A stretch of 15,749 bases of DNA. It comes from a virus. The notes below the pieces were generated by a model, which saw only the letters and a list, made by a program, of their open reading frames with translations, was not told the origin of the DNA and ran no database searches. The translations under genes and the position numbers were made by a program. This document shows, piece by piece, positions 1-15,749 of this stretch. How positions within the stretch are numbered: the stretch's first letter is position 1; the number at the start of each line of letters is the position of its first letter. The stretch is from UHGV virus genome UHGV-0120055. The stretch is one strand, 5' to 3'.

Positions 1-41
1 GGGGTATTGAATTCAGCCATCAGTAAAAACAAGGTGTTCAT
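1..41 (-). CDS. 5' end of a leftward gene that continues beyond the window (partial)
   Basis: Reverse-strand ATG at 41-39 preceded by GGAGA (rc of 48-52) at 5-nt spacing; reads MNTLFLLMAEFNTP to the window edge. Not in the ORF track because it is truncated. Confidence 0.3.
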   Translation of the reverse strand, partial: MNTLFLLMAEFNT

Positions 42-77
42 AATTTTCTCCATCAAAACCGGCTGCACCCGGGAAAA

Positions 78-1402: not shown

Positions 1403-1404
1403 AA

Positions 1405-1596
1405 CTATTTCACTTTAATCTCAATATTTCGCAGCTTTAGCTCTACTGGCAGGTCTGACTTTCCTGTTAATGCTAATGCGAGATTTTCAGGAGTAATGAG
1501 AGCAGTTATTGTTTTCCCCATCGCCAGACGAATAATCATTCGTATCTCGCGATCGTCACATGCTCCCGGTCGAACAATTGATATTTGTCCGTTCAT
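1405..1596 (-). CDS. small hypothetical protein (63 aa)
   Basis: Internal ATG 1596-1594 with AGGAG SD (rc of 1603-1607); the longer track ORF 1405..1677 would overlap the upstream gene. Start is 1 nt beyond the upstream stop at 1598-1600. Confidence 0.45.
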   Translation of the reverse strand: MNGQISIVRPGACDDREIRMIIRLAMGKTITALITPENLALALTGKSDLPVELKLRNIEIKVK

Positions 1597-1597
1597 C

Positions 1598-2236
1598 TCA
1601 CTCTCCTTTGATGCGAATGCCTGCGGCGCGTGGCACATTAACTTCCACGATGCGCACTGTTGGTTTGTACATCTCAATCGCTGTCAACCAGTCAGCTCCT
1701 GTCATGCGCTTTTCCGCATCGCCATTAGTCCACTGAACCGGTACACCAATAGCCTTCATCGCGATTTCTATTTCCCCGGCAATGGCGCTTTTTCCGCAAC
1801 CAGTAAAACCAGAAACAACGACAAGAACTTCACCTTTGGCTGGTTTTATTTCCCGTGCTTCCAGTTCTGCAATGCGCTTACTTCCATCCGAGATAACACC
1901 TTCGTAATACTCACGCTGCTCGTTGAGTTTTGATTTTGCTGCTTCAAGCTCAACGCGCAGCTTCCCAACCGTAAGCGCAATATCCTCGTTCTCCTGGTCG
2001 CGGCGTTTGATGTATTGCTGGTTTCTTTCCCGTTCATCCAGAAGCGCCAGCACGGTTTCTGGTCCGGCCAGAAATTTGAAGGCGTTGAGCGCATCAATAT
2101 CCACACCGTAATCTTTAAGTTCCTGTTCACTTATCAGATCATCATCAACTGGCAACATTAACAGGCGTTCCATTGCCGGAATTGCACGTTCTGCCGCCTC
2201 ACGCAGCGCCAGTGTGTCGATGTCGATTTTGCTCAT
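1598..2236 (-). CDS. Ea22/Ead-like phage early protein
   Basis: N-terminus MSKIDIDTLALREAAERA... and a central coiled-coil-like region resemble lambda Ea22-family proteins. Start at ATG 2236-2234 with AGGAGG SD (rc of 2241-2246) and ATGA overlap with the upstream stop; the track start at 2260 has a weaker SD. Confidence 0.6.
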   Translation of the reverse strand: MSKIDIDTLALREAAERAIPAMERLLMLPVDDDLISEQELKDYGVDIDALNAFKFLAGPETVLALLDERERNQQYIKRRDQENEDIALTVGKLRVELEAAKSKLNEQREYYEGVISDGSKRIAELEAREIKPAKGEVLVVVSGFTGCGKSAIAGEIEIAMKAIGVPVQWTNGDAEKRMTGADWLTAIEMYKPTVRIVEVNVPRAAGIRIKGE

Positions 2237-2466
2237 TGTGCCTCCTCGATTTCGTCCCATTCCACCCAGGCATTCTCTCCATCAGCATCGATTTCACCTT
2301 TGTGACCGCATTTGGAACAAACGGCCTCATCACCCGCCCACAAAGAATCTTTGGTTACCGACCATCCTGTTACCTTGGCTTTGCCGTGCTGGCACTTAGG
2401 GCAATCATCAAGCCATTCGACTTCGACCGTTGAAGGACCAAATCCATGTTCAGTTCGGATGCTCAT
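2233..2466 (-). CDS. small zinc-ribbon protein (77 aa)
   Basis: Two Cys pairs (CPKC ... CSKC) in the translation; ATG 2466-2464 with AAGGAG SD (rc of 2472-2477); ATGA overlap with the upstream gene. Confidence 0.5.
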   Translation of the reverse strand: MSIRTEHGFGPSTVEVEWLDDCPKCQHGKAKVTGWSVTKDSLWAGDEAVCSKCGHKGEIDADGENAWVEWDEIEEAQ

Positions 2467-2807
2467 GACTGAACTCCTTTGCGAATCTGTTCCGCCCATT
2501 CTTCAAGGGATTTCTCTGCATATTCACCGGACAGGCCATCAATCGGATGCGATTCATTAGCTAACTCTTCTTTTGCTGACAGAATCATGCGTGTAACGTC
2601 GAAAACTTCAGCCAAAGGCTTATTGATAAATCCGTGATTGAAAGCAGCAGCAAGACGGCTTGCGGTATAGTTAATACCCTCGTTGCGAGCCTCAGCACGT
2701 ACTTCATCGAATTTACGCACCAGATACTCAGCATTTGTTTCATTCACTTTCAGATCTCGCGGTACACATTTCCCGCGAAGAAACCCTTCCATTTCGATAA
2801 CATTCAT
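2463..2807 (-). CDS. hypothetical phage early protein (114 aa)
   Basis: Track ORF 2463..2813; start placed at ATG 2807-2805, which overlaps the stop of the HD-domain gene (ATGA). No family recognised. Confidence 0.5.
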   Translation of the reverse strand: MNVIEMEGFLRGKCVPRDLKVNETNAEYLVRKFDEVRAEARNEGINYTASRLAAAFNHGFINKPLAEVFDVTRMILSAKEELANESHPIDGLSGEYAEKSLEEWAEQIRKGVQS

Positions 2808-3340
2808 GCGCATTTGCGTAACTCCGATAACTCGTTAAAACGTTCCATAAACATCCCATAGGCATGGCCTGGCGACAGTGGAATAACTTTGAACATCTCT
2901 GTTGCCGGGATACCTTCCAATACAGGCCAGAAAGAGCCATCATCAAGTCCGAGATCGCGGCGTTCGGTTGCCAGCATGATGAGATCGGCATATTTCACTG
3001 GCGTGCTCATAACCGGGGGTAACCCGTATTTCTCACGGATTACGGCGTCTATTTTTTCTTCCATCCGTTTATAGTCAGGAAGAAGGCGTTTCAGTGGAGC
3101 GGGGATGTCCTGGCAATACGCTTCTGTTGCATCATGCATTAACGCTTCAAAAGCAAATTCCTGCGGCACCAGCTGGCTGCAAAGAACCGCATGTTGGGCG
3201 ACGCTGTAGAAGTGCGAAAGATGACCGGCAAAGCGACAGATATTTGAAAGGGAAACCGCGATATCGTTAATATCGATGTCGTCTTTATTTATCTTGTCAT
3301 AATAAAAATGCTTCCCGGAAAAAGTTTTAATAAATGACAT
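2804..3340 (-). CDS. HD-domain phosphohydrolase (YfdR-like 5'-deoxynucleotidase family)
   Basis: His ... His-Asp motifs (VAQHAV, LMHDATEAY) typical of the HD superfamily; ATG 3340-3338 with GGAGA SD (rc of 3346-3350). Resembles CPS-53 prophage YfdR from memory. Confidence 0.7.
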   Translation of the reverse strand: MSFIKTFSGKHFYYDKINKDDIDINDIAVSLSNICRFAGHLSHFYSVAQHAVLCSQLVPQEFAFEALMHDATEAYCQDIPAPLKRLLPDYKRMEEKIDAVIREKYGLPPVMSTPVKYADLIMLATERRDLGLDDGSFWPVLEGIPATEMFKVIPLSPGHAYGMFMERFNELSELRKCA

Positions 3341-3467
3341 TTTGTTCTCCACGTATATGCACTGCACCGCGCTGAATTCTGGTAAAAGGAAGCCCTCACC
3401 ATTCGGTGATTATTGAGTTAATTACGTTTCCATAAATGCCCCCGCAGGGGCATTTGCAGTAATGAAA

Positions 3468-4292
3468 TCAGGCGGTGAAAGTACCAATAAAGGTTTCTAC
3501 TTTGCTGTCTTTGAATTTCTCAACAAGCAGATCACGAAATTCGTTAGCCATTTCTTCCTGCACCGCTTCCAGCTGAATAATGCGCAGAACCAGTACAGGA
3601 CGATCGCCAGTGATAATGCTGAGGCGTAATTTAAACGGACGTTCTTTCAGACCTTCAAACGGAACGCATTTAAATTCAAATGCCACTGGCATAATGTCTT
3701 TGGTCTTCGCTTCGACAGACTCCATCAGGGAGCGTTTGCCGCTGAAGTCATTATCTTCAAAATCAGCGGTCTGGTTCGCTTCAATTGTGATTTTACGGAT
3801 CGCCGCAGCCGCTTTGGTTGCCTGAATGGCGTCACCATTAGCATCAAAGCCCACAAGGTAGTCGGCCCAGTCTTCAATCCATTCTGCTAGTGACTTCTGG
3901 GAGTTACGCTCGCCGTTAACAGACAACAGGGCAGAGAACGGTGCTGTCTTTTTCAGTTTGAGAGTGGCGGTGTTATCTGCGTGACCTGGTTCATCAATAG
4001 TACCCAGGTTAAGCACACTGACTGCTCGCATATTATCGGCATCGATAAAGCAGCGGGTGCCTTCATCTGCAAGATCTTTAGAATAACGGGTAAAGTCATC
4101 GATGCTGGCAGTGGAAAGCGCACCACGGAAACGGAAGCGATTTAAATTAAATTTTTCCAGATCATGAATGCGGAAATTCTCAGGCAATGCCACAGCATCG
4201 GCACCAATCTTACTGATAATTTCATTAACACCCTGAGCAGAAATAAGGGCATGGATTTGATTAATTGCGGTTGCGTCTAAGTTCTGAGACAT
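3468..4292 (-). CDS. YfdQ-like phage protein (DUF2303-type)
   Basis: 274-aa ORF; ATG 4292 with GAGGA SD (rc of 4299-4303). Assigned by recollection of the yfdP-yfdQ-yfdR arrangement in E. coli CPS-53; not verified by search. Confidence 0.6.
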
Positions 4293-4357
4293 AATAAGTC
4301 CTCACTATATAAAGATATTCAGTGATGAGATAAATAATCAGTTAATTAAGAACGATA

Positions 4358-4720
4358 TTAATGACCTGCTGCGCGGAGTTTTCCGTCAGGTTCACCGGCA
4401 AGAGTCAGTAATTGTCCCTGGTCTTCCTGCAGAATAGTCAGGCGACCACCGCGATTGACATACATCGGCGTTTCGGTGGTGTCTTCTTCAGAAATTTTCC
4501 CGCGGTTAGTCGGGCGAACATATGAGAGTTTGTGTTTGATTTTCACACGGTTCTCATCAAATGGTTCGATTTCCAGGTTGAGTGAGACCTTACCTTTGGT
4601 TTTCGTGTTCATCACACCGGAAGCGACTTCACTGAGAACTGCGCCGATTTTGGTTTCAAATACGCCGCCGTCCAGCTCCCCGATAAATGCCTGCACATCA
4701 GTACTGCGTTCGCTAGCCAT
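4358..4720 (-). CDS. YfdP-like hypothetical protein (120 aa)
   Basis: Track ORF 4358..4951 trimmed to ATG 4720-4718 (MASERSTDVQ...) with GAGGAG SD (rc of 4727-4732); the upstream extension is low-complexity and overlaps the structured leader. Confidence 0.6.
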   Translation of the reverse strand: MASERSTDVQAFIGELDGGVFETKIGAVLSEVASGVMNTKTKGKVSLNLEIEPFDENRVKIKHKLSYVRPTNRGKISEEDTTETPMYVNRGGRLTILQEDQGQLLTLAGEPDGKLRAAGH

Positions 4721-4768
4721 TTTGCTGCTCCTCATCATATCGACCCTGCAAGGCCGATTAGTTTCTCC

Positions 4769-4903
4769 ACAAAACAGAGAAGAACACCTGCGGTGGCTGC
4801 CGCCCGGATGGATTGGGTTATGAGCCCGTCGTCCGGTGATGCTCTTCTCTGTTTTGTAAAAAGAGCGGTACCAGCCGGAAGCAAGGGTACAAACTGGTAC
4901 CGC
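4769..4903 (-). promoter_or_regulatory. structured pL-leader RNA element: boxA-like motif between two long hairpins (candidate nut/put-like site)
   Basis: Perfect 15-bp inverted repeat 4769-4783 / 4843-4857 (59-nt interior); perfect 10-bp inverted repeat 4865-4874 / 4894-4903 (19-nt loop); minus-strand CGCTCTTTTTACAAAAC (rc of 4851-4867) resembles the boxA consensus CGCTCTT(T)A. Confidence 0.3.
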
Positions 4904-5314
4904 CAAAGCAGTGGCTGTTGTGGTGGGGTTGTCACTCAGGCGTATGGTCAACCTGACAATCCGGTGTCCTCAACGGGGAAAGAGTAACCCCGCCATACTT
5001 ACCGCCGCGCCATTTCGCGGATTACCACAACGCTGAGAGCACTTAGCCAGTTACGGCACCACACTTTGTCGCGGCTCCATAAATGCCCTCATCGTTGCAC
5101 CCTGGTCTCTTCCCAGGCGTCAAACCGAATCGCCACGCTGGTTAGGCGTCTTATCAGCATCATCATTGACTTGCACATTCCGGCTACCTGGTTTGTTTGC
5201 CCGAGCAAGGAGTGGATTGTCCCCTTTAACGTCCCCAGACCGCTAACGACGCATGTGCCATACGCCGTGTTACAACCAAATTTTGTTAGTACCTTGTTTG
5301 TTTGTCTGGAAAGA

Positions 5315-5367
5315 AAGATAAAATGAAGTTGCGCATTATGCAAGTGTTTTTGTTGCGAGATATGCAA
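5315..5367 (-). promoter_or_regulatory. OL/pL-like region: two 15-bp operator-like sites overlapping a leftward promoter
   Basis: TTGCGCATTATGCAA (5329-5343) and TTGCGAGATATGCAA (5353-5367) share the pattern TTGCG-N5-TGCAA with the OR site at 6136-6150. Candidate minus-strand -35 TTGCAT (rc of 5338-5343) and -10 TATCTT (rc of 5315-5320) at 17-bp spacing. Confidence 0.4.
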
Positions 5368-5380
5368 TTTAAAGGGTAAT

Positions 5381-5402
5381 GAAAAGCCACCTTTGGGTGG
5401 CT
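5381..5402 (-). terminator. putative intrinsic terminator downstream of the repressor gene
   Basis: 7-bp stem AGCCACC/GGTGGCT with a 4-nt loop (5385-5402), followed on the minus strand by UUUC AUU; about 20 nt after the repressor stop. The U-tract is short. Confidence 0.35.
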
Positions 5403-5422
5403 AATTGATGAGGAGGTAAGGG

Positions 5423-6115
5423 TTAATTGTGTCGCTTAATGGTTTGTGACTGGCTGATTAAGACCTTTCCAAAGACCATAAACCGGTGTTCATTTTCGCT
5501 GGTAATTCCCCATTCACGGTAAATCTGGTTATCAGAAATCACCAGTAGTTTGTCAGGTATCATTTGCAGTCGTTTGACATAAATTTTATCATCAAAACCA
5601 AATACATAGATACCATCTCCATCAAACTGATTGATACTGACATCAACGAAGATGAGATCTCCTGGCTCAATGGTTGGACACATACTGTCCCCACGAACGT
5701 TGATAACTTTAATGTGATTGGCTGGCCGTCCACCAAACATCGATACAGCATTATCAGTTCTGTATTCAATGGCATGAATCACATCAATGACATCACCGCC
5801 CTGGATAAGGCCATTTCCCGCACTGGCACTGACATCCAGCATTTCAATACGGAATACATCCTTCACCTGCGCAACATCCTCACTAATACTGTTTTTACAT
5901 ACAGTATTACTTTTGAAGTCTGAGGTAAAGAGATCAGCAATATCAACACCTAAGCTCTTGGCAATATTACTCAGGGCTTGTTCAGTGAATTGTTTCTGCT
6001 TACCTGTTTCCAGGCGTGAGATATTCGCCGCATCCACTCCTATTGCTTCAGCGAGATCGGCGATTTTCATGTTCTTCGCCTGGCGAAGTTGTCTGACTCG
6101 GTTTCCTATGTTCAT
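5423..6115 (-). CDS. CI-type prophage repressor (HTH_XRE N-terminus, S24 LexA-like autopeptidase C-terminus)
   Basis: N-terminal HTH (KIADLAEAIGVDAANISRLE), Ala-Gly cleavage-site candidate (SASAGNG), Ser/Lys dyad context (RGDSM ... VKRL). ATG 6115 has no SD and sits 7 nt from a -10-like hexamer, consistent with a leaderless transcript as for lambda cI from pRM. Confidence 0.85.
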   Translation of the reverse strand: MNIGNRVRQLRQAKNMKIADLAEAIGVDAANISRLETGKQKQFTEQALSNIAKSLGVDIADLFTSDFKSNTVCKNSISEDVAQVKDVFRIEMLDVSASAGNGLIQGGDVIDVIHAIEYRTDNAVSMFGGRPANHIKVINVRGDSMCPTIEPGDLIFVDVSINQFDGDGIYVFGFDDKIYVKRLQMIPDKLLVISDNQIYREWGITSENEHRFMVFGKVLISQSQTIKRHN

Positions 6116-6212
6116 GCGTTTATTACATTTCTTTATTGCGCGTTAAGCAAATCAACTTGCGCAAAATATTTGCGTGAAATAATATGCTCATCACGCAATA
6201 TGTGGAGGTTAT
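6116..6212. promoter_or_regulatory. OR-like region with divergent promoters (pRM-like leftward, pR-like rightward) and operator half-sites
   Basis: Rightward: -35 TTGCGC (6157-6162), 17-bp spacer, -10 TAATAT (6180-6185), then GGAGG SD and cro ATG at 6213. Leftward: -35 TTGCTT (rc of 6145-6150), 17-bp spacer, -10 TGTAAT (rc of 6122-6127). Operator-like TTGCGCGTTAAGCAA (6136-6150), palindrome TTGCGCAA (6157-6164), weaker ATGCTCATCACGCAA (6184-6198). Confidence 0.5.
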
Positions 6213-6473
6213 ATGCAATCACCATTACGGAATGTGCGTAAGGCGCACGGATTTACTTTGCAGCATGTTGCTGCTGGCGTTCAGGTCAATCCAGCGACGC
6301 TGAGTCGTATTGAAAGACTGGAACAAATTCCATCTATCGATCTTGCAGAACGTCTGGCCAATTTTTTTAAGGGTGAAATCAGCGAAATGCAGATTCTTTA
6401 TCCGGCACGTTTTCAATCTAGCCAAAACCAGAATGGGTTTAAACCACAGGAACAGGAGGTAAGCCGTGGGTAA
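6213..6473 (+). CDS. Cro-like HTH_XRE regulator
   Basis: 86-aa ORF diverging from the repressor; HTH (FTLQHVAAGVQVNPATLSRIE); GGAGG SD at 6204-6208. Confidence 0.75.
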   Translation: MQSPLRNVRKAHGFTLQHVAAGVQVNPATLSRIERLEQIPSIDLAERLANFFKGEISEMQILYPARFQSSQNQNGFKPQEQEVSRG

Positions 6474-7017
6474 TCATCACTGGAAAGTGGAAAAACAGCC
6501 TGAGTGGTACGTGAAAGCTGTCAGAAAAACCATCGCGGCGTTGCCAGGGGGTTACGCTGAAGCTGCTGAGTGGCTGGATGTTACAGAGAACGCTTTATTC
6601 AACCGCCTTCGTGCAGATGGCGATCAGATTTTCCCGCTGGGATGGGCAATGATTTTACAGCGTGCTGCTGGCACTCACTACATTGCGGATGCTGTCGCAC
6701 AGTCTGCTGGTGGGGTGTTTGTATCGCTTCCTGAAATTGAGGAAGTAGAGAACGCAGATATAAACCAGCGCCTGCTGGAAGTCATCGAACAGATCGGGAG
6801 TTACTCAAAGCAGATTCGTTCGGCAATCGAAGATGGGGTAGTGGAGCCACACGAGCAGACAGCAATTAATGATGAATTGTATCTGTCAATTTCGAAGCTC
6901 CAGGAGCATGCGGCACTGGTCTACAAAATTTTCTGCGCTCCAGAAAAGAGTGACGCCCGCGAGTGTGCAGCTCCGGGCGTCGTGGCGTTTTGTGTCTGTG
7001 GAGAAACTAACGCATGA
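6466..7017 (+). CDS. CII-like / CP76-family putative regulatory protein
   Basis: 183-aa ORF directly after cro; GTG start 6466 with AGGAGG SD (6454-6459). Position and size match CII/CP76 or YdaT-like proteins, but the family call is from memory and tentative. Confidence 0.55.
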   Translation: MGNHHWKVEKQPEWYVKAVRKTIAALPGGYAEAAEWLDVTENALFNRLRADGDQIFPLGWAMILQRAAGTHYIADAVAQSAGGVFVSLPEIEEVENADINQRLLEVIEQIGSYSKQIRSAIEDGVVEPHEQTAINDELYLSISKLQEHAALVYKIFCAPEKSDARECAAPGVVAFCVCGETNA

Positions 7018-7162
7018 ACAGTTTAACGGCAAATAACCGTTTGTCGCAACAGCTGGTGGTCAGTGTCGCTGCACACCTGTTGTTACGGCATGAATGCAGA
7101 TTACCAAATCACCTGGCTGTAAGTAACCACAGAGAACTTTACCTGACTGTGGGGGGCGAGTT

Positions 7163-7342
7163 GTGCAGGAACTTAACCGCTGGTTTCGTGACGGAAGAGG
7201 ACTTTATGTTCATGTTATTCGTTGGGAGCCAGAAACACAGCGCGTTATCTATCTTCGCAAAGACTACCCGCATGAGTGCTTTAGTCCTTTGTGGAAATTC
7301 AGGCGTGATTTTGTTGAGTGTGAAGGACCACCAGCACATTGA
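7163..7342 (+). CDS. small hypothetical protein (59 aa, GTG start) in an alternative frame inside long ORF 7014..8165
   Basis: Frame-2 translation VQELNRWFRDGRGLYVHVIRWEPETQRVIYLRKDYPHECFSPLWKFRRDFVECEGPPAH has protein-like composition; a G6 run (7151-7156) lies just upstream and could serve as SD. Below the ORF-track length cutoff. Confidence 0.3.
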   Translation: MQELNRWFRDGRGLYVHVIRWEPETQRVIYLRKDYPHECFSPLWKFRRDFVECEGPPAH

Positions 7343-7619
7343 TTCTGCCATTCCGGGACGTTACACTGTTCAGGCACCTTATAAAGCGGGTGCCGGGATT
7401 GGCGTCCTGAAATTGATTACTGAGCATAACCGCGCTCATGCGGTTTTTTCGTGTCATGAGCATTGCTACGCCCAAATTATGGTGTGGCGTACAGGGCCGA
7501 CTTCGGTCGGGCCGGGTTCGGTAGTCTCCGGTAACGCCAACCCTGTACGTCTCACCACCTCTGTGATTGGCGTCCCATGTGGTGAGTTTTCTAAAAAACT
7601 GACTACCGGGGCTGTCACC

Positions 7620-8165
7620 ATGACTACTCTCCCAACCATCTCTCAACCTGAAATTGCCATCGTTGATGGTCAGGCTGTTACATCTTCTTTGGCTGTTGCT
7701 GACTTCTTCTCTAAACGTCATGACGATGTACTGAAAAAGATCCGCACGCTTGAATGCTCAGCATCATTCACTGCCCGCAATTTTTCGGTGAGTGATTACA
7801 CTGATTGCACAGGTCGCAAACTTCCTTGCTACCAAATCACACGCGACGGTTTTGCGTTTCTTGCTATGGGTTTCACGGGTAAACGTGCTGCCCAGTTCAA
7901 AGAGGCATACATCAATGCCTTTAACCAGATGGAGAAACAGCTTTCAAAGCCCTCTGTACCGAGCGACGTTGCACATAACGCCAGCGTTCTCTATTCCTAC
8001 ATTTCATCAATTCATCAGGTCTGGCTGCAGCAGCTTTATCCCATGTTGGCAAAAGCCGAATCCCCGCTGGCTGTAAGTCTGTATGACCGCATCAACGACG
8101 CGGCGCTACTGGCCAGTCTCATAAATTTGTCGCTGAACCCTTCAGAGGTAAGGGGGCGCAAATGA
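7620..8165 (+). CDS. Rha-family phage regulatory protein (start uncertain)
   Basis: Translation from ATG 7620 (MTTLPTISQPEIAIVDGQ...) contains the Rha-domain signature (KRHDDVLKKI ... YQITRDGFAFLAMGFTGKRAAQFKEAYINAF). The same frame is open upstream to ATG 7014, but those 202 residues are compositionally atypical (see findings). Confidence 0.65.
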   Translation: MTTLPTISQPEIAIVDGQAVTSSLAVADFFSKRHDDVLKKIRTLECSASFTARNFSVSDYTDCTGRKLPCYQITRDGFAFLAMGFTGKRAAQFKEAYINAFNQMEKQLSKPSVPSDVAHNASVLYSYISSIHQVWLQQLYPMLAKAESPLAVSLYDRINDAALLASLINLSLNPSEVRGRK

Positions 8166-8386
8166 TCCGGAATATTTTCAAACGGTTTACCAATCATACT
8201 TTCCGTTGTCCTCGTCCGGGTCAGTGGTACACCACGCCTGCAGGGCATGTTCTACGTGTTAGCCTGGTTGACCGTGAATGCCAGAAGGTGATTTGTGAAC
8301 CGCTGGGCCGTAATTACCGCGTCAGTATGCCGCTTATAGCCTTTCGCTCCGGAAAAAACATGAAGCATCTCGGAGGTGCGGCATGA
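8162..8386 (+). CDS. hypothetical protein (74 aa)
   Basis: ATGA overlaps at both ends (8162-8165 with Rha stop; 8383-8386 with the O-like start) suggest a translationally coupled real gene. No family recognised. Confidence 0.5.
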   Translation: MIRNIFKRFTNHTFRCPRPGQWYTTPAGHVLRVSLVDRECQKVICEPLGRNYRVSMPLIAFRSGKNMKHLGGAA

Positions 8387-9375
8387 GCCTGTTAATGACA
8401 TCCCAGCCCATTGTGATAAATCGTGATCTTGCATGCCGTATTGGTCTGAATGAGGCAATTGTGTTGCAGCAGCTTCATTACTGGCTGAATGAAACGAATT
8501 CAGGCACTGAGCATGGCGGAATTCGCTGGGTTTATAACACGACAGAACAGTGGCTGGAGCAGTTTCCGTTCTGGTCAGAGTCCACTCTGAAACGCACATT
8601 TGCAAGCCTGAAATCACTTGGGGTTTTGCGTCGCGAGCAACTCAATAAATCGAAGCGTGACATGACCAACTTCTACACGATCAACTATGAAAGTGAGCTT
8701 TTAGAAGAGGTCAAAGTGAACGAATCCATCAGGTCAAAATGCACCTCTCCATCGGGTCAAAGTGACCTGATGGATGAGCGCAAAATGACACGATCCATTG
8801 GTTCAAAACGACACGCTGTCATCGGGTCAAAATGGCCCAATGATCTTACAGAGAATACAACAGAGATTACTACAGAGAATAAAACCTCTTCTCGTCCGGA
8901 CGCTTCGCAACCGGACACGCAGATGGCTGAACAGGATTTTTTAACTCGCCATCCTGATGCGGTTGTATTCAGCCCTAAAAAGCGCCAGTGGGGAACGCAG
9001 GATGATTTGACCTGCGCACAGTGGCTCTGGAAAAAAATCATCGCTCTGTACGAGCAGGCCGCCGAATGTGACGGCGAAGTGGTACGTCCTAAAGAACCGA
9101 ACTGGACAGCCTGGGCAAACGAAATTCGCCTGATGTGTGTACAGGATGGGCGTACTCACAAACAAATCTGCGAGATGTACAGCCGCGTCAGCCGCGATCC
9201 GTTCTGGTGCCGTAACGTGCTCAGCCCGTCGAAGCTGCGGGAAAAATGGGATGAGCTTTCCCTGCGCTTATCGCCGTCCGTCAGCACGTACACAGAAAAA
9301 CGCGAAGACCCGTACTTCAAAGCCAGTTACGACAACGTGGACTACAGCCAGATCCCGGCAGGATTCAGGGGGTGA
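8383..9375 (+). CDS. replication initiator / replisome organizer (lambda O-like)
   Basis: N-terminal region (LNEAIVLQQLHYWLNE ... WSESTLKRTFASLKSLGVL) resembles phage replisome-organizer N-domains; GGAGG SD at 8372-8376; an iteron array lies in the linker-coding region as in lambda O. Confidence 0.75.
   Translation: MSLLMTSQPIVINRDLACRIGLNEAIVLQQLHYWLNETNSGTEHGGIRWVYNTTEQWLEQFPFWSESTLKRTFASLKSLGVLRREQLNKSKRDMTNFYTINYESELLEEVKVNESIRSKCTSPSGQSDLMDERKMTRSIGSKRHAVIGSKWPNDLTENTTEITTENKTSSRPDASQPDTQMAEQDFLTRHPDAVVFSPKKRQWGTQDDLTCAQWLWKKIIALYEQAAECDGEVVRPKEPNWTAWANEIRLMCVQDGRTHKQICEMYSRVSRDPFWCRNVLSPSKLREKWDELSLRLSPSVSTYTEKREDPYFKASYDNVDYSQIPAGFRG
8709..8890 (+). repeat. origin-like iteron array plus A-rich direct repeats inside the O-like gene
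   Basis: Four 17-bp iterons TCCATC(A/G)GGTCAAA(A/G)TG at 8725-8741, 8748-8764, 8794-8810, 8818-8834 and a partial copy at 8709-8719; iteron 2 extends into a palindrome (...GTGACCTGATGGA); then ACAGAGA x3 in an A-rich tract (8845-8885). Confidence 0.6.
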
Positions 9376-9377
9376 TT

Positions 9378-9866
9378 ATGAGTATTTTGAATGAAGTTCA
9401 GAAATTCATTGAAGCCCATCCGGGGTGTACTTCCGGAGACATTGCGGATGCTTTTGCAGGTTACTCACGGCAGCGCGTTCTGCAGTCAGCAAGCAAGTTA
9501 CGTCAGAGTGGGCGTGTGGCTCACCGTTGTGAAGGAGATACACGCAGACATTTCCCGCGCCTGACTGAGAGAGCGCAGGAACCGGAACCACAACCAGTTC
9601 GTGAAACCAGACCTGTGCGCAATTTCTATGTCGGCACTAACGATCCCCGTGTGATTTTGTGCCTGACCCGTCAGGCGGAAGAACTGGAGTCCAGGGGCTT
9701 ATACCGTCGTGCTGCAACCGTGTGGATGGCGGCATTCCGTGAAAGCCACTCCCAGCCAGAACGAAACAATTTTCTGGCGCGTCGTGAGCGGTGCTTACGG
9801 AAAAGCAGCAAGCGCGCTGCATCGGGTGAAGAGTGGTATCTGTCAGGGAATTACGTGGGGGCTTAA
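9378..9866 (+). CDS. putative transcriptional regulator (wHTH-like N-terminus; PerC-like C-terminal motif)
   Basis: ATG 9378 with GGGGG SD (9368-9372). C-terminal LESRGLYRRAATVWMAAF recalls the PerC/Pch motif; tentative. Confidence 0.55.
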   Translation: MSILNEVQKFIEAHPGCTSGDIADAFAGYSRQRVLQSASKLRQSGRVAHRCEGDTRRHFPRLTERAQEPEPQPVRETRPVRNFYVGTNDPRVILCLTRQAEELESRGLYRRAATVWMAAFRESHSQPERNNFLARRERCLRKSSKRAASGEEWYLSGNYVGA

Positions 9867-10519
9867 TGAGTAATAAATATTGCCAGGCGCTGGTGGAACT
9901 GCGGAACAAACCAGCCCATGAACTGAAGGAAGTGGGCGATCAGTGGCGCACGCCGGACAACATTTTCTGGGGAATTAACACCCTGTTTGGCCCGTTTGTT
10001 CTGGATCTGTTCACTGACGGTGATAACGCCAAATGTGCCGCGTATTACACGGCGGAAGACAACGCGCTTGCGCATGACTGGTCAGAACGTCTTGCGGAGC
10101 TTAAAGGTGCTGCCTTTGGTAATCCCCCATACAGCCGCGCCAGTCAGCATGAGGGGCAATACATCACCGGCATGCGTTACATCATGAAACATGCCAGTGC
10201 CATGCGTGATAAGGGCGGGCGCTATGTTTTCCTGATCAAAGCTGCCACCAGCGAAGTGTGGTGGCCGGAAGATGCAGATCATATTGCTTTTATTCGCGGG
10301 CGTATTGGTTTTGAACTGCCTGTCTGGTTTATCCCGAAAGACGAGAAGCAGGTACCGACAGGAGCTTTTTTCGCTGGTGCTATTGCTGTTTTTGACAAGA
10401 CCTGGAAGGGACCGGCAATCAGCTACATCGGGCGCGATGAACTTGAGGCATGTGGTGAGGCGTTTCTGGCGCAGGTTCGCCAGCAGGCGGAAAAACTGGT
10501 CAGGGAGATGGCGGCATGA
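9866..10519 (+). CDS. phage Dam-family DNA N6-adenine methyltransferase
   Basis: NPPY motif (GNPPYSR) and upstream WRTPDNIF ... FVLDLFTD pattern typical of phage Dam-family methyltransferases; ATG 9866 overlaps the upstream TAA (TAATG); GGGGG SD at 9856-9860. Confidence 0.8.
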   Translation: MSNKYCQALVELRNKPAHELKEVGDQWRTPDNIFWGINTLFGPFVLDLFTDGDNAKCAAYYTAEDNALAHDWSERLAELKGAAFGNPPYSRASQHEGQYITGMRYIMKHASAMRDKGGRYVFLIKAATSEVWWPEDADHIAFIRGRIGFELPVWFIPKDEKQVPTGAFFAGAIAVFDKTWKGPAISYIGRDELEACGEAFLAQVRQQAEKLVREMAA

Positions 10520-10842
10520 CGACGTTAACTCAATGCCAGCAGCAGGTGCTGGATATGCTGATTTCTTATCAGAAAGAACGTGGCTTCCCGCCAACCAATC
10601 AGGAGGTGGCAACCATGCTGGGATACCGTTCAGTGAATGCAGCGGTGGAGCATCTTCGCGCACTGGAGAAAAAAGGCGTCATCACGATAAAGCGTGGCGT
10701 GGCCCGGGGGATAACGCTTCATACCGCGGTGAAGGACGACGACAGCGAGGCGGTCGGGATTATCCGCGCACTGCTTGCCGGTGAGGAAAACGCAAGGCTG
10801 CGTGCAACCCACTGGTTACATGAGAGGGACCTGAAAGTATGA
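10516..10842 (+). CDS. LexA N-terminal DNA-binding-domain-like protein (no peptidase domain)
   Basis: MTTLTQCQQQVLDMLISYQKERGFPPTNQEVATMLGYRSVNAAVEHLRALEKKGVI closely parallels the LexA winged-helix N-domain ([56 protein letters not shown], from memory); only 108 aa with no S24 domain; ATGA overlaps at both ends. Confidence 0.7.
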   Translation: MTTLTQCQQQVLDMLISYQKERGFPPTNQEVATMLGYRSVNAAVEHLRALEKKGVITIKRGVARGITLHTAVKDDDSEAVGIIRALLAGEENARLRATHWLHERDLKV

Positions 10843-11228
10843 AGCTGATCCTGCCTTTTCCGCCCAGCGTGAACACGTACTGGCGACACCCCAACAAAGG
10901 GGCGTTTGCTGGTAAGAGTCTGATAAGCGCGGCGGGGCGAAAATTCCAGAGCGCGGCGTGCGCAGCAATAGTTGAGCAGTTACGTCGTCTGCCGAAACCA
11001 ACGTCGGCACCTGCTTCAGTGGAGATCGTGTTGTTTCCTCCGGATAACCGGATCCGCGATCTGGACAACTATAACAAGGCGCTGTTTGACGCCCTGACCC
11101 ACGCGGGTGTGTGGGAAGACGACAGTCAGGTGAAAAGAATGCTGGTGGAGTGGGGACCGGTTATCCCGGAAGGGAAGGTCGAGATCACTATCAGTAAGTA
11201 CGAGAAAACGGCGGGTGCAGCCGCCTGA
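10839..11228 (+). CDS. rusA: RusA Holliday-junction resolvase
   Basis: MKLILPFPPSVNTYW ... DLDNYNKALFDALTHAGVWEDD matches the RusA family signature; common in lambdoid nin regions. Confidence 0.85.
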   Translation: MKLILPFPPSVNTYWRHPNKGAFAGKSLISAAGRKFQSAACAAIVEQLRRLPKPTSAPASVEIVLFPPDNRIRDLDNYNKALFDALTHAGVWEDDSQVKRMLVEWGPVIPEGKVEITISKYEKTAGAAA

Positions 11229-11247
11229 TCAAGAGGAGAAACGAAGT

Positions 11248-12057
11248 ATGAATAATCTGATGGTCATTGATGGTATTGAAGTTCGTCGTGATGCTTATGG
11301 GCGTTACAGCCTGAACGATCTGCATCGCGCAGCAGTAGCATCTGGTGCAAATGCCAGAACCAAGGAGCCGGGAAAGTTTCTTTCCAGCCAACAAACTGTT
11401 GAGCTTGTTCATGAATTGACCAACACCCAGAATTTGGGTGTTGACCCGGTGAGTGTGATTCATGGGGGAAATGAACGGGGAACGTATGTCTGCAAGGAAC
11501 TGGTGTATGCCTATGCAATGTGGATCAGCCCGTCATTCCATCTGAAGGTGATCCGTACTTTCGATATGGTAACCAGCGCACCGGAAAAATTATCCGGACA
11601 GGCTGCTGACAAGATGCAGGCTGGCGTGATCCTGCTGGACTTTATGCGCCGGGAGTTAAACCTGTCTAACTCTTCAGTGCTTGGTGCCTGTCAGAAACTC
11701 CAGGAGGCTGTTGGCTTACCGAATCTGGCACCGCGCTATGCCATTGATGCTCCTGCTGACGCGCCTGATGGCTCAAGCCGCCCCACGCTATCATTGAGTG
11801 CACTGCTGAAGCAGTATGGTATCCGCCTGACAGCTAATCAGGCATATCACCAGATGGCGAAGCTGGGGATCGTTGAACAACGTGAACGATACAGCCGCAC
11901 TGCGATTAACAACATCAAAAAATTCTGGTCGCTGACGGCGAAAGGCTGCATGTTCGGCAAGAACATCACCAGTCCCGCAAATCCGCGCGAGACGCAGCCG
12001 CATTTCTTCGAATCCCGATTCCCTGAGCTGTTAAAGCTGCTCGATACCGTTCATTGA
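11248..12057 (+). CDS. KilA-N domain protein
   Basis: ATG 11248 with AGAGGAG SD (11232-11238); N-terminus MNNLMVIDGIEVRRDAYGRYSLNDLHRAA ... GTYVCKELVYAYAMWISPSFHLKV matches the KilA-N pattern; C-terminal half unassigned. Confidence 0.7.
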   Translation: MNNLMVIDGIEVRRDAYGRYSLNDLHRAAVASGANARTKEPGKFLSSQQTVELVHELTNTQNLGVDPVSVIHGGNERGTYVCKELVYAYAMWISPSFHLKVIRTFDMVTSAPEKLSGQAADKMQAGVILLDFMRRELNLSNSSVLGACQKLQEAVGLPNLAPRYAIDAPADAPDGSSRPTLSLSALLKQYGIRLTANQAYHQMAKLGIVEQRERYSRTAINNIKKFWSLTAKGCMFGKNITSPANPRETQPHFFESRFPELLKLLDTVH

Positions 12058-12058
12058 G

Positions 12059-13054
12059 GTGACCGTGAGAGCACTACTGACTCCTGAAATTGCCCCGCGT
12101 ATGGGGATCGTATTGTTCAGGCCAGGTTCAGAGCTGATGCCCCTGTTTATGCAGGGGCGTGTCCTGCTGGAGCCTGAGCCGGAACGTTATTCATCTTTCG
12201 CCAGTGGTGCCGTTCCGGCGGCATCACAACCGCTGGCGGATGATCCTGCCGTTCGGGCCGTGTTCCGCAATGAGGCAGTGATTCGTCGTGCTGGTGGCGT
12301 GGAATGTCTTGAAAGCTGGTTACTTCGTGAAAAAGGCTGCCAGTGGCCTCATTCCGACTGGCACAGCGAGAACATGACCACAATGCGACACGCGCCGGGC
12401 GCAATCCGTCTGTGCTGGCACTGCGATAACCAGCTGCGCGATCAGTTCACGGAACGGCTGGAATCAATGGCAACGGATAACTGTGCCCGCTGGGTGTTAT
12501 CTGTTGTGCGTCGGGATCTCGGTTTTGATGATAGTCACGTTGTGACAATGCCGGAACTGTGCTGGTGGCTGGTTCGTAATGATCTGGCGGATGCCTTACC
12601 GGAAAGCGCAGCCCGTAAGGCACTGAGATTACCGAAGCCTGTTGTGCCGTCTGTCACCCGGGAAAGTGACCTTGTGCCTTCGGTTCCTGCCACCAGCATC
12701 ATCCAGGATAAAGCGAAAAAGGTGCTGGCGCTGAAAGTGGATCCGGAGTCGCCGGAGTCTTTTATGTTACGCCCAAAACGTCGCCGCTGGGTTAATGAAA
12801 AGTACACGCGCTGGGTTAAGACGCAGCCGTGCGCATGTTGTGGAAAGCCTGCTGATGATCCCCACCACCTGATAGGTCACGGTCAGGGTGGAATGGGAAC
12901 AAAAGCGCATGACCTCTTTGTGTTGCCTTTGTGCAGAAAGCATCACGACGAGCTGCATGCGGATACCGTGGCATTTGAAGAGAAGTATGGTTCCCAGCTG
13001 GAGCTGATATTTCGTTTTATCGATCGTGCGCTGGCAATAGGCGTACTGGCGTAA
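12059..13054 (+). CDS. DUF968-family protein with C-terminal Cys/His (HNH-like) motif
   Basis: C-terminus PCACCGKPADDPHHL ... CRKHHDELH; resembles YdfU/DUF968 proteins found upstream of Q in Qin-like prophages. Start is GTG 12059 or 12065 (TGAGG SD at 12055-12059 favours 12065). Confidence 0.65.
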   Translation: MTVRALLTPEIAPRMGIVLFRPGSELMPLFMQGRVLLEPEPERYSSFASGAVPAASQPLADDPAVRAVFRNEAVIRRAGGVECLESWLLREKGCQWPHSDWHSENMTTMRHAPGAIRLCWHCDNQLRDQFTERLESMATDNCARWVLSVVRRDLGFDDSHVVTMPELCWWLVRNDLADALPESAARKALRLPKPVVPSVTRESDLVPSVPATSIIQDKAKKVLALKVDPESPESFMLRPKRRRWVNEKYTRWVKTQPCACCGKPADDPHHLIGHGQGGMGTKAHDLFVLPLCRKHHDELHADTVAFEEKYGSQLELIFRFIDRALAIGVLA

Positions 13055-13067
13055 GTGGAGAACGAGC

Positions 13068-13820
13068 ATGAACCTTGAAGCCTTACCGAAATATTACTCC
13101 CCGAAATCTCCAAAATTGAGCGATGACGCACCGGCGACAGGCTCTGGTGGTTTAACAATTACGGATGTAATGGCTGCGCAGGGTATGGTGCAGTCGAAAG
13201 CACCGCTTGGGTTTGCCTTATTCCTGGCAAAAGTTGGTGTTCAGGATCCTCAGTTTGCGATTGAAGGTCTGCTCAATTACGCGATGGCACTGGATAACCC
13301 GACATTGAACAAATTGAGTGAAGAAACCCGGTTACAGATCATCCCTTACCTTGTGAACTTTGCCTTTGCTGATTATTCCAGGTCTGCGGCAAGTAAGGCT
13401 CGCTGTGAGCATTGTGCTGGTACTGGATTTCATAATGTATTGCGCGAAGTGGTGAAACACTCCAGAAGCGGGGAATCTGTTATCAAGGAAGAGTGGGTGA
13501 AGGAACTGTGTCAGCATTGTCATGGTAAGGGAGAAGTCAGCACAGCGTGCAGAGGGTGTAAGGGTAAAGGTATTGTCCTGGATGAAAAAAGAACCCGGCT
13601 TCATGGCACGCCTGTTTATAAGGTTTGTGGGCGTTGCAATGGAAACCGGTTTAGCCGTTTACCAACCACACTGGCGCGGCTTCATGTCCAGAAGCTGGTA
13701 CCAGACCTGACGGATTATCAGTGGTACAAAGGATATGCAGATGTCATTGATAAACTGGTTACAAAGTGCTGGCAGGAAGAAGCATATGCAGAGATACAAT
13801 TGAGAAAGGTGACAAGATAA
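13068..13820 (+). CDS. late-gene antiterminator Q (phage 82 / Qin-type)
   Basis: 250 aa with Cys clusters (CEHCAGTG ... CQHCHGKG ... CRGCKGKG ... CGRCNG) and followed by a promoter plus strong terminator; GTGGAG SD at 13055-13060. Family by recollection. Confidence 0.7.
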   Translation: MNLEALPKYYSPKSPKLSDDAPATGSGGLTITDVMAAQGMVQSKAPLGFALFLAKVGVQDPQFAIEGLLNYAMALDNPTLNKLSEETRLQIIPYLVNFAFADYSRSAASKARCEHCAGTGFHNVLREVVKHSRSGESVIKEEWVKELCQHCHGKGEVSTACRGCKGKGIVLDEKRTRLHGTPVYKVCGRCNGNRFSRLPTTLARLHVQKLVPDLTDYQWYKGYADVIDKLVTKCWQEEAYAEIQLRKVTR

Positions 13821-13851
13821 ATGGTTTTCGCCGAAGATGACGACATGATGC

Positions 13852-13880
13852 TTGCGTTTTTCAAAAAATATGGATAAGAT
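13852..13880 (+). promoter_or_regulatory. candidate Q-dependent late promoter (pR'-like)
   Basis: -35 TTGCGT (13852-13857), 17-bp spacer, -10 TAAGAT (13875-13880), about 30 nt after the Q stop and about 45 nt before the terminator hairpin. Confidence 0.4.
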
Positions 13881-13926
13881 TTTTACAACGATGGGCTTTG
13901 TATGTCTACCGTTGATAAGATTTAAG

Positions 13927-13951
13927 AACCCGCCACTGAGCGGGTTTTTTT
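13927..13951 (+). terminator. rho-independent terminator (tR'-like)
   Basis: Stem AACCCGC / GCGGGTT (13927-13933 / 13940-13946) with loop CACTGA, followed by a T-run through 13951. Confidence 0.65.
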
Positions 13952-14073
13952 GTACCTGTAAACTTGGTGCAGTACAGTAAACACGCTGGTGGTCGTGAAT
14001 ACTGACTTTTTATCTTGCTGGCTTTTTAGACAAGAGTTATTGGTATGTCATGTTAACAAGAAGGGAAAAAGAC

Positions 14074-14277
14074 ATGCTAAAACAGCAAGATATGACAGAA
14101 ACCGCCGCCGCAGTCCTTCATTTCTTACCTGCTGACAAGTGGGTAACGCCACGCATGATGACGAGAACTACCGGAGTAAGCGAAGCCCGGTGCCAGTTAA
14201 TACTGACTCAGTTAGTTCTGGCGGGTCTGGCGAAGGATAACGGCGGGTACGGGAATAAATTCAGACGCTGCCAGTAA
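14074..14277 (+). CDS. small hypothetical protein (67 aa; possible winged-helix)
   Basis: Track ORF 14050..14277; internal ATG 14074 has AAGGGA SD (14061-14066). Segment TTGVSEARCQLILTQLVLAGLA is HTH-like. Confidence 0.4.
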   Translation: MLKQQDMTETAAAVLHFLPADKWVTPRMMTRTTGVSEARCQLILTQLVLAGLAKDNGGYGNKFRRCQ

Positions 14278-14427
14278 TGGCGGTTTCCTGCTGTGAAAAT
14301 GGGCGGCTGGTGGGTGTTGGTAGCACCTGCCAGCCATTCGCTCATGCTTACTGGTCACAAGCGAACCACGGCCCACTGCTTTAGCGCAAAAGCAGAGTGA
14401 GCCTACCAGAGTTACGCTTACTGATCC

Positions 14428-15477
14428 ATGAAAAACACTGTGAAAATAAACAGTGTTGATTTAATCAACGCTGATTGCCTGCATTTTATTCAGTCCCTGC
14501 CTGATGATTCCATTGACCTGATTGTTACCGATCCGCCGTACTTCAAGGTGAAACCCAACGGCTGGGACAATCAGTGGAAAGGGGACGAAGATTACCTTAA
14601 GTGGCTGGACCACTGTCTGGCGCAGTTCTGGCGGGTGTTAAAACCTGCAGGAAGCCTTTACCTGTTCTGTGGACATCGCCTGGCATCTGATATCGAAATC
14701 ATGATGCGTGAACGCTTCAGTGTGCTGAACCATATTATCTGGGCGAAGCCGTCCGGACGCTGGAACGGATGCAACAAGGAAAGCCTGCGGGCGTATTTCC
14801 CCGCCACAGAGCGCATTCTGTTCGCGGAACATTATCAGGGGCCGTATCGTCCGAAAGATGCCGGGTATGAGGCGAAGGGCAGGGAACTGAAACAGCATGT
14901 GATGACCCCGCTGATTGCTTACTTTCGTGATGCGCGCGCTGCCCTGGGGATAACGGCAAAACAGATTGCAGATGCCACAGGAAAGAAAAACATGGTGTCG
15001 CACTGGTTCAGTGCCAGTCAGTGGCAGTTGCCGAACGAAAGCGATTATCTGAAATTACAGGCGCTGTTTGCCCGGGTGGCAGAAGAGAAGCATCAGCGCG
15101 GTGAACTGGAAAAGCCCCACCACCAGCTGCTGAAGACGTATACTTCACTGAACCGGCAGTATGCGGAACTGCAGAGTGAATATAAGCATCTGCGGCGGTA
15201 TTTTGGCGTGACGGCGCAGGTGCCGTACACGGATGTGTGGACACATAAACCGGTGCAGTTCTATCCCGGGAAACATCCGTGCGAAAAACCGGCAGAAATG
15301 CTGCAGCAGATAATCAGCGCGAGCAGTCGTCCTGGTGACATGGTGGCGGATTTCTTCATGGGTTCTGGCTCAACCATAAAGGCGGCTATGGCGCTTGGGC
15401 GTCGTGCAATTGGTGTTGAGCTGGAGACCGGACGTTTTGAGCAGACAGTCAGGGAAGTTCAGGATTTAATCGTTTGA
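14428..15477 (+). CDS. DNA methyltransferase, beta-class N6-adenine/N4-cytosine (N6_N4_Mtase-like)
   Basis: Motif IV DPPY near the N-terminus (LIVTDPPYF) and motif I FxGxG near the C-terminus (DFFMGSGST), i.e. beta-class order; no adjacent restriction-endonuclease-like ORF in the window. Confidence 0.8.
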   Translation: MKNTVKINSVDLINADCLHFIQSLPDDSIDLIVTDPPYFKVKPNGWDNQWKGDEDYLKWLDHCLAQFWRVLKPAGSLYLFCGHRLASDIEIMMRERFSVLNHIIWAKPSGRWNGCNKESLRAYFPATERILFAEHYQGPYRPKDAGYEAKGRELKQHVMTPLIAYFRDARAALGITAKQIADATGKKNMVSHWFSASQWQLPNESDYLKLQALFARVAEEKHQRGELEKPHHQLLKTYTSLNRQYAELQSEYKHLRRYFGVTAQVPYTDVWTHKPVQFYPGKHPCEKPAEMLQQIISASSRPGDMVADFFMGSGSTIKAAMALGRRAIGVELETGRFEQTVREVQDLIV

Positions 15478-15526
15478 AACGGATGAGATTGCAGAATTAA
15501 TTACGCACCATTATTATTCTGCTCCC

Positions 15527-15602
15527 GGCCCTTTAGCTCAGTGGTGAGAGCGAGCGACTCATAATCGCCAGGTCGCTGGTTCAAATCCAGCAAGGGCCAC
15601 CA
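15527..15602 (+). tRNA. tRNA-Met or tRNA-Ile2 (anticodon CAU)
   Basis: Hand-folded cloverleaf: acceptor GGCCCTT/AAGGGCC, D-stem GCTC/GAGC, anticodon loop CTCATAA, T-stem GCTGG/CCAGC with T-loop TTCAAAT, discriminator A and encoded CCA. Met versus lysidine-modified Ile cannot be distinguished by eye. Confidence 0.85.
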
Positions 15603-15609
15603 TCACATA

Positions 15610-15686
15610 CCGCCATTAGCTCATCAGGACAGAGCGCCAGCCTTCGAAGCTGGTTGCGCGGGGGGCGGGTCCCCGATGGCGGTCCA
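15610..15686 (+). tRNA. tRNA-Arg (anticodon UCG) with atypical T-loop
   Basis: Acceptor CCGCCAT/ATGGCGG, D-stem GCTC/GAGC, anticodon stem CCAGC/GCTGG with loop CTTCGAA, T-stem CGGGG/CCCCG, encoded CCA. The T-loop is GGCGGGT, lacking the canonical T54/Psi55/A58 positions. Confidence 0.6.
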
Positions 15687-15699
15687 TTATCGGTATTCA

Positions 15700-15749
15700 G
15701 CGTTGTTAGCTCAGCCGGACAGAGCAATTGCCTTCTAAGCAATCGGTCA
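15700..15749 (+). tRNA. tRNA-Arg (anticodon UCU), 3' part truncated by window end
   Basis: Acceptor 5' arm GCGTTGT, TA, D-stem GCTC/GAGC, anticodon stem ATTGC/GCAAT with loop CTTCTAA; the sequence ends in the variable region. Confidence 0.6.

Follow-up and report, generated by a model that had tools for sequence, protein, structure and literature searches.

A rare non-canonical T-loop allele of argN, the middle gene of a prophage tRNA operon

Can a phage tRNA gene whose stems all pair still yield a working tRNA when its T-loop lacks T54, Psi55 and A58? The question is raised by positions 15610-15686 of a 15,749-nt stretch of the virus genome UHGV-0120055, here called the window. A preliminary description, made from the letters alone, had placed a tRNA-Arg(UCG) at these positions and had offered three options for it: a pseudo-tRNA, a tRNA with altered folding, or a tRNA-like element with another role. 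It missed that the gene is a known one, argN, that the odd T-loop is specific to one allele, and that one-step intermediates exist.

argN and its operon

The features of the window on which the argument draws are the following.

13068-13820, + strand: Q-type late antiterminator gene, ydfT-like (ORF; 'antitermination protein' ydfT in L001, the closest public relative)
14428-15477, + strand: DNA methyltransferase gene (ORF directly upstream of the tRNA operon; annotated in L001)
15489-15517, + strand: candidate tRNA-operon promoter pT, TTGCAG-N17-TATTAT, ending 10 nt before ileZ
15527-15602, + strand: ileZ, tRNA with anticodon CAU (ARAGORN; Rfam 72.5 bits)
15610-15686, + strand: argN, tRNA-Arg(UCG), 77 nt, with T-loop GGCGGGT, discriminator U and encoded CCA
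15644-15646, + strand: argN anticodon TCG, inside the 7-nt loop CUUCGAA
15659-15675, + strand: argN T arm, stem CGGGG/CCCCG, loop GGCGGGT at 15664-15670
15684-15686, + strand: argN CCA, encoded
15700-15749, + strand: argO, tRNA-Arg(UCU), 5′ two-thirds, the gene being cut by the window end (Rfam 30.6 bits)

ARAGORN called a tRNA-Arg(tcg) at exactly 15610-15686, and Rfam RF00005 scored it at 45.3 bits (E = 4.8e-07; gathering score 29), which upholds the call of the preliminary description. The gene reads, in order, CCGCCAU-UA-GCUC-AUCAGGACA-GAGC-G-CCAGC-CUUCGAA-GCUGG-UUGCG-CGGGG-GGCGGGU-CCCCG-AUGGCGG-U-CCA. Its stems of 7, 4, 5 and 5 bp are Watson-Crick in 21 of 21 pairs and CCA is present, again as had been claimed. 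The D-loop, read from the sequence, is A14 U15 C16 A17 G18 G19 A20 C20a A21, and the anticodon loop (15642-15648) is C32 U33 U34 C35 G36 A37 A38, with U33 and a purine at 37. E. coli ArgRS uses A20, C35 and G/U36 as identity elements, and the corresponding A20, C35 and G36 are all in place.

The T-loop is G54 G55 C56 G57 G58 G59 U60 and retains only C56 and R57 of the consensus T54-Psi55-C56-R57-A58, so that T54, Psi55 and A58 are indeed missing. Rfam set GGCGGGU against the consensus UUCgAaU with high posterior probability; since this alignment is unambiguous, no other register restores a canonical T-loop, and the covariance-model alignment of that kind with which the preliminary description had reckoned was not obtained. 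The cloverleaf was both the MFE and the centroid structure in folding predictions, which added a G54-U60 pair that reduces the T-loop to 5 nt. Of the four genomes that carry the identical 77-mer, three were examined for their RefSeq annotation (made for nearly all records by NCBI's PGAP pipeline); in each of them it is labelled tRNA-Arg and is not flagged as a pseudogene. A G-quadruplex or terminator role of the G-rich hairpin was also considered and dropped, because there are two G tracts only and a U run is absent downstream.

Much of this would suit a fully functional tRNA-Arg(UCG) whose odd T-loop is tolerated or compensated, for example by the very stable all-G/C T stem and the G19-C56 pair, and which would give the phage a gain in CGA/CGG decoding. 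The intact cloverleaf is also the fold of minimum free energy, the score exceeds the Rfam gathering threshold, RefSeq raises no pseudogene flag, and A20, C35, G36, G18, G19, C56, G57 and CCA are all there. The predicted G54-U60 pair with its 5-nt loop speaks against full function, as does the fact that U54-A58 and Psi55-G18 are core contacts of the tRNA elbow (PMC4810234). We regard full function as unlikely, also in the light of the allele distribution described below.

The element is argN, the middle gene of an ileZ-argN-argO operon in a lambdoid prophage, an identity that follows from the tRNA calls, the ileZ-argN-argO synteny, the named phage genes and the homology to phage 933W. At the level of sequence, its position, homology, anticodon and identity bases place it in the argN family. 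The gene before it, ileZ, was labelled Met by ARAGORN and is a tRNA-Ile (AUA) in RefSeq and in the 933W record; the Ile (AUA) label presumes lysidine at C34. The gene after it, argO, is present in full length in the 100% identical stretch of L001 and then scores 70.1 bits (Rfam). Beyond argO, L001 has a hairpin resembling a terminator (3312-3329), then a DUF6645 gene and lysis genes, and stx is missing. L001 and the window are 99.85% identical over the methyltransferase part. The trio of tRNA genes is compactly arranged, between a promoter-like site that is conserved and the hairpin of terminator type. The candidate pT aligns with the 933W feature 'pT; putative tRNA promoter', with both hexamers identical; in a consensus promoter scan it fell below the threshold (3/6 + 5/6). 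The Q-type gene upstream places the tRNAs in the late-transcription region, and the layout of the window agrees with the Q-pR′-tRNAs arrangement of 933W.

In the 933W record (GenBank AF125520), the order is Q, pR′ and terminators; pT; ileZ (AUA), argN and argO (AGA; 'AGG?'); a terminator; and stx2. The argN of 933W occupies the same slot between ileZ and argO, downstream of Q, and shares with the window gene the anticodon UCG, the acceptor, D and anticodon arms, the discriminator U and the encoded CCA; 71 of 77 positions are identical. In contrast, 933W has the canonical T-loop TTCGAGT and a G51-U63 pair, where the window has G54, G55, G58, C63, A17 and U44. Unlike 933W, the window also carries the methylase gene between Q and the tRNAs, and its nearest relative, L001, lacks stx after the cluster. 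argN has been known since 1999, when it was reportedly named in the description of 933W by Plunkett et al. (J Bacteriol 181:1767); the window adds one more allele, a rare derived one with a non-canonical T-loop.

The cluster itself is widespread. A 270-nt query spanning the three tRNA genes matched 289 phage records, mostly Stx-converting, in which the genes are named ileZ, argN and argO, and it located the cluster in 3061 of 5426 complete E. coli genomes. Over these 270 nt the window is 100% identical to NZ_AP027829.

T-loop alleles and contents of the argN slot

Comparison with the phage homologues, which the preliminary description had proposed as a check, identified the gene as argN and showed that 933W and most relatives carry TTCGAGT or TTCAAGT. 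Among 150 argN-type 77-mers from IMG/VR contigs, collected by Hamming distance, the T-loops were distributed as follows.

TTCGAGT: 74 of 150 copies
TTCGGGT: 37 of 150 copies
TTCAAGT: 30 of 150 copies
CTCGGGT: 4 of 150 copies
GTCGAGT: 2 of 150 copies
TTCGAGC: 1 of 150 copies
TTCGAGA: 1 of 150 copies
GGCGGGT (window allele): 1 of 150 copies, on contig L039

The odd T-loop is a property of one rare allele, not of the argN gene. In this sample, position 54 is T in 143 copies and position 55 in 149, while position 58 is A in 108 and G in 42. G58 by itself is thus common in the family, a point in favour of a functional tRNA. The G at 55, confined to the GGCGGGT allele, the prevalence of T54 and the great rarity of the allele count against it.

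The window allele stands at the end of a one-step series, TT, GT and GG at positions 54-55, on a G58 background. The T-loop TTCGGGT occurs on 77-mers otherwise identical to that of the window (L017, L033 and L073), from which the window differs by TT to GG. GTCGGGT, one base from the window allele, was found on an otherwise identical 77-mer (L123-L127) in E. coli 14EC001, NMBU-W12E19, SHP24, LZHX12 and JNEC-KY204; the intermediate was confirmed in these 5 of the 9 genomes listed at one mismatch. Rfam scores dropped stepwise along the argN T-loop series, from 58.4 bits for TTCAAGT and 56.0 for TTCGAGT to 54.0 for TTCGGGT, 48.9 for GTCGGGT and 45.3 for GGCGGGT.

The exact GGCGGGT 77-mer was found in 4 of the 5426 complete E. 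coli genomes (2017.17.03CC, ZH48, ZH49 and CUPS TF 6/1_01) and was absent from 50,697 phage records. The last 3.3 kb of the window are 99.85% identical to NZ_AP027829, and the last 1.45 kb are 95% identical to L039 and 87% to ZH48 and CUPS, the latter two carrying another Q gene than the window. The allele therefore sits on at least three prophage backbones, 5-13% apart in the adjacent methylase region, which argues that it is real and no sequencing error. An artefact in which T was read as G beside a G run would fit the error-prone context, as the two changes lengthen the run from four to six. This reading is effectively refuted by the same allele on diverged flanks: the four complete genomes that share the identical 77-mer with an IMG/VR contig and with the window stem from different laboratories, they came from a human (Viet Nam) and from pigs (China, Thailand), and the one-step intermediate GTCGGGT is present in five further genomes. 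We give it a negligible probability.

The allele has either spread between at least three prophage backbones or persisted in them. Its identity on such diverged backbones is compatible with a functional tRNA; the same persistence suggests that the allele is not strongly counter-selected, which is equally expected if it is functional.

The argN family as a whole is somewhat atypical, beyond the window allele alone. In every argN allele seen, U15 and G48 replace the usual G15-C48 Levitt pair (window positions 15624 and 15658), and C1-G72 and discriminator U73 are likewise present throughout. The best argN alleles reach only 56-58 bits on Rfam, against ∼70 for ileZ and argO.

Across 121 related loci, ileZ is almost invariant and its neighbours vary: nucleotide diversity was 0.059 for argN, 18 positions of which were held fixed by the way the loci were collected, against 0.007 for ileZ. 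Only 76 of the 150 argN copies are fully canonical: G18G19 and CCA are present, all 21 stem pairs are formed and the T-loop is canonical. Common alleles combine the mismatches A6-A67 and A52-C62 with G58, and one of these scores 43.4 bits (Rfam). Among 47 alleles of the argN family, stems were paired in 96.6% of cells; compensatory double changes were limited to tRNA-Lys derivatives, and argN alleles proper vary through G-U or broken pairs. Covariation as a sign of ongoing structural selection was rejected, since argN proper lacks compensatory double changes.

A second sample of 120 loci was gathered by an ileZ pattern. About 49 of these contain the exact argN anticodon arm, as judged from the locus ids shared with the argN scan, and the slot contents of the remaining 71 were tabulated.

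Class B, anticodon arm replaced by a hairpin of 7 bp with a 3-nt loop, missed by ARAGORN: 29 of 71 loci
tRNA-Lys(UUU) on an argN-like scaffold: 18 of 71 loci
argN with anticodon-arm variants: 17 of 71 loci
Anticodon-arm deletions: 3 of 71 loci
argN/argO fusions: 3 of 71 loci
argN with anticodon UCU: 1 of 71 loci

These sequences indicate that the argN slot is decaying across the population. Such variation has been seen before, in that a 2026 paper on stx2i prophages mentions clusters annotated 'tRNA-pseudo-tRNA-Arg', not Ile-Arg-Arg (PMC13641118); an analysis of ileZ-argN-argO cluster variation was not found in the literature searched.

Several of the replacements are of some interest by themselves. 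The UCU variant (L142 2133-2209) yields two UCU tRNA-Arg genes in tandem. In the argN/argO fusions (L137, L152 and L177), one gene was lost via recombination in the shared anticodon-loop region. The tRNA-Lys(UUU) genes (L131 7270-7502; also L128, L149-L151, L154, L160 and others) have the acceptor, D and T arms of argN, with U7-A66 changed to C7-G66 and two compensatory changes in the anticodon stem; in L131 the gene is followed by tRNA-Thr(UGU) and tRNA-Gly(UCC). By its sequence, the tRNA-Lys(UUU) on the argN scaffold looks like anticodon-arm swapping inside a phage tRNA gene.

The largest class in the table, class B, is an 80-nt tRNA-like remnant without an anticodon in the argN slot (e.g. 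L132, L156, L166, L075 and L196). It was found in 1813 of 5426 complete E. coli genomes, with one exact 80-mer in 912 of them, and also in phages mEp460 and phiP27. It is mostly without RefSeq annotation, except for 'tRNA-OTHER' in Stx2e prophages when the T-loop is canonical, and ARAGORN gave no tRNA call for it. In class B the acceptor, D and T arms persist along with CCA; its acceptor stem, D arm, CCA and flanking spacers are as in the window. The anticodon arm is swapped for CAGACGACACGATAACAGGGTTGTTGGTG, predicted to fold as a 7-bp hairpin with a 3-nt loop; the characteristic CAGACGAC...GGTTGTTGGTG is absent from the window, which alone of the two has a normal arm, CCAGC-CUUCGAA-GCUGG.

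A G-rich T arm was present in 25 of the 29 sampled class B copies. In 22 of these it is CGGGG-GCGGGT-CCCCG, so that the window has one G more than the commonest class B form; in two, L156 and L166, it is CGGGG-GGCGGGT-CCCCG exactly as in the window, and one other copy has a longer G run. In L075, a class B copy taken from the first scan, the T arm contains nine G in a row, and the run lengths seen in class B are 5, 6, 9 or 12. A canonical T arm occurs in few class B copies (L153, L173 and the Stx2e/phiP27 form). The T arm of the window is thus the hallmark of copies unable to decode, and this association of the G-rich T arm with genes that have no anticodon arm argues against a functional tRNA. 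The window allele, in which the G-rich T arm is joined to an intact anticodon arm, is a rare pairing. Each of the two kinds of anticodon arm is found with each of the two kinds of T arm, and the flanks offer no discriminating sites; the mutation could have arisen in argN and then been transferred to class B, or the window allele could have come from class B by recombination.

The abundance of class B brings up a tRNA-like RNA with a non-decoding role, for which the G-rich T arm (GGCGGGU or GCGGGU) common to class B would be selected and of which the window allele would be the form still bearing an anticodon. Such an RNA might act as a module for processing, spacing or stability as RNase P and RNase E free ileZ and argO, or as a decoy or donor that evades the ribosome, TrmA/TruB or tRNA-targeting nucleases. 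It would explain why class B retains the acceptor, D and T arms and CCA after losing the anticodon arm, why a single 80-mer recurs in 912 complete E. coli genomes and is carried by viable phages, mEp460 among them, and why the slot is rarely deleted outright (three argN/argO fusions in 120 ileZ-anchored loci). An identical prophage segment would, however, also become widespread by horizontal transfer and by hitch-hiking with ileZ and argO, and the varying G run of class B (5, 6, 9 or 12), together with deletions in other copies, looks like decay. Covariation gave no support for a new structure, and the literature searched contained no experimental hint of such a role, which we therefore hold to be very improbable. 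Among the three options of the preliminary description, the evidence favours a pseudo-tRNA or altered folding, and nothing that we found supports a separate tRNA-like role.

Decoding need and the fate of the allele

To our knowledge, tRNA-Arg(UCG) is absent from E. coli K-12, which has only ACG, CCG, UCU and CCU. The tRNA-Arg genes of the host are argQVYZ (ICG), argX (CCG), argU (UCU) and argW (CCU). These have A20, C35 and the class I cloverleaf in common with argN, and the ICG and CCG tRNAs share its codons CGA and CGG. They differ in having no UCG anticodon and in having canonical T-loops, G15-C48 and discriminator A/G73, where argN has U15, G48 and U73. The 933W record gives for argN 'codons recognized: CGH; CGG?', and the UCG anticodon probably reads CGG as well as CGA. 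Codon use, compared between the prophage and 50 kb of host genes, was as follows (per 1000 codons).

AUA: prophage 6.4-9.3, host 1.1
AGA: prophage 3.4-7.0, host 0.4
AGG: prophage 3.2-5.3, host 0.4
CGA: prophage 3.4-5.7, host 1.9
CGG: prophage 7.5-13.9, host 4.3

Prophage use of the codons of the three tRNAs is two- to seventeen-fold above that of the host, with the smallest excess for CGA and CGG, the codons of argN. This suggests that the cluster tops up scarce host tRNAs during phage gene expression; supplementing scarce host tRNAs is also said to have been the rationale given for the cluster in the 933W study. The host tRNA-Arg(ICG) and tRNA-Arg(CCG) already read CGA and CGG. This coverage and the smallest codon excess may explain why argN alone of the trio drifts, and why a damaged argN is tolerated.

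Our preferred reading, to which we give a probability of about three in four, is that its T-loop changes have weakened or inactivated this copy of argN, a phage tRNA gene that is dispensable. Judging from the 933W annotation and the conserved layout, the operon would be transcribed both from its own pT and by Q-antiterminated late transcription; the transcript would stop at the hairpin after argO and be cleaved into three tRNAs, which would decode AUA, CGA/CGG and AGA/AGG. The T-loop probably changed stepwise from TTCGAGT through TTCGGGT and GTCGGGT to GGCGGGT, that is, by U54 to G, U55 to G and A58 to G relative to the reference gene. These changes would abolish two contacts, Psi55-G18 and the reverse-Hoogsteen pair U54-A58 by which the T-loop is closed, and would leave the host modification enzymes TrmA and TruB without their substrate base. 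All four stems are kept, together with the anticodon loop, the G19-C56 pair and the identity bases for ArgRS. The elbow would probably fold badly and the tRNA be weak or without function, with argN drifting as the dispensable member of the trio.

Elbow contacts serve RNase P, the ribosome and tRNA chaperones (PMC4810234, PMC8051267), and in a human mitochondrial tRNA the mutation U54C disturbs Psi55 and the conformation of the tRNA (PMC11538713). For argN, the searchable literature contained no expression, processing or charging data on any allele. In vitro work on tRNA-Phe transcripts by Nazarenko, Harrington and Uhlenbeck in 1994 reportedly found many conserved tertiary nucleotides dispensable for EF-Tu binding and elongation. 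Among natural tRNAs, the staphylococcal non-proteinogenic tRNA-Gly species of cell-wall synthesis have a T arm that departs from the GTPsiC consensus, is conserved and has been linked to EF-Tu exclusion. In contrast, the departure in the window is a rare allele in a decaying family, with no sign of conservation.

The direct importance of the finding is small, as it adds a probably impaired allele to a known prophage tRNA gene. Annotation pipelines treat the GGCGGGT allele as a normal tRNA-Arg despite the loss of three nearly universal T-loop bases, so the number of phage-supplied tRNAs counted in E. coli may be slightly too high. More generally, the trio evolves unequally: ileZ is almost frozen, and the argN slot mixes intact, damaged, anticodon-switched (UCU, Lys-UUU), fused and anticodon-less forms. 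Such a pattern agrees with the idea that phages retain only the tRNAs for codons that the host decodes poorly (AUA, AGA/AGG), and it lets the usefulness of phage tRNAs be ranked. Should the allele be functional after all, it would represent a natural bacterial elongator tRNA that works without T54, Psi55 and A58.

The surrounding prophage

None of the fetched records is identical to the whole window. NZ_AP027829 (L203) is 99.1% identical to it over 1-3451 and 8879-15749, and mostly unrelated or weakly related over 3452-8878, which is typical of lambdoid mosaicism. The NZ_AP027829 prophage adjoins zur and a fragment of a tRNA-dihydrouridine synthase gene, taken as dusA, and has its integrase at the far end.

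In the early region of the prophage, the window has two neighbouring small RNAs, isrK at 7374-7450 on the + strand (Rfam, 59.3 bits) and a C4 antisense RNA at 7475-7562 on the + strand (Rfam, 77.7 bits). The pair resembles an antisense immunity module of the P1/P7 type or an IsrK/anti-Q-like one. In many relatives, the sRNAs STnc100 and AgvB (anti-GcvB) are found 3′ of argO (L017 2647-2901; also L022, L101, L015, L102 and L106); the matching stretch in the nearest relative (L001 ∼3420-3700) is annotated only as a fragmentary hypothetical protein.
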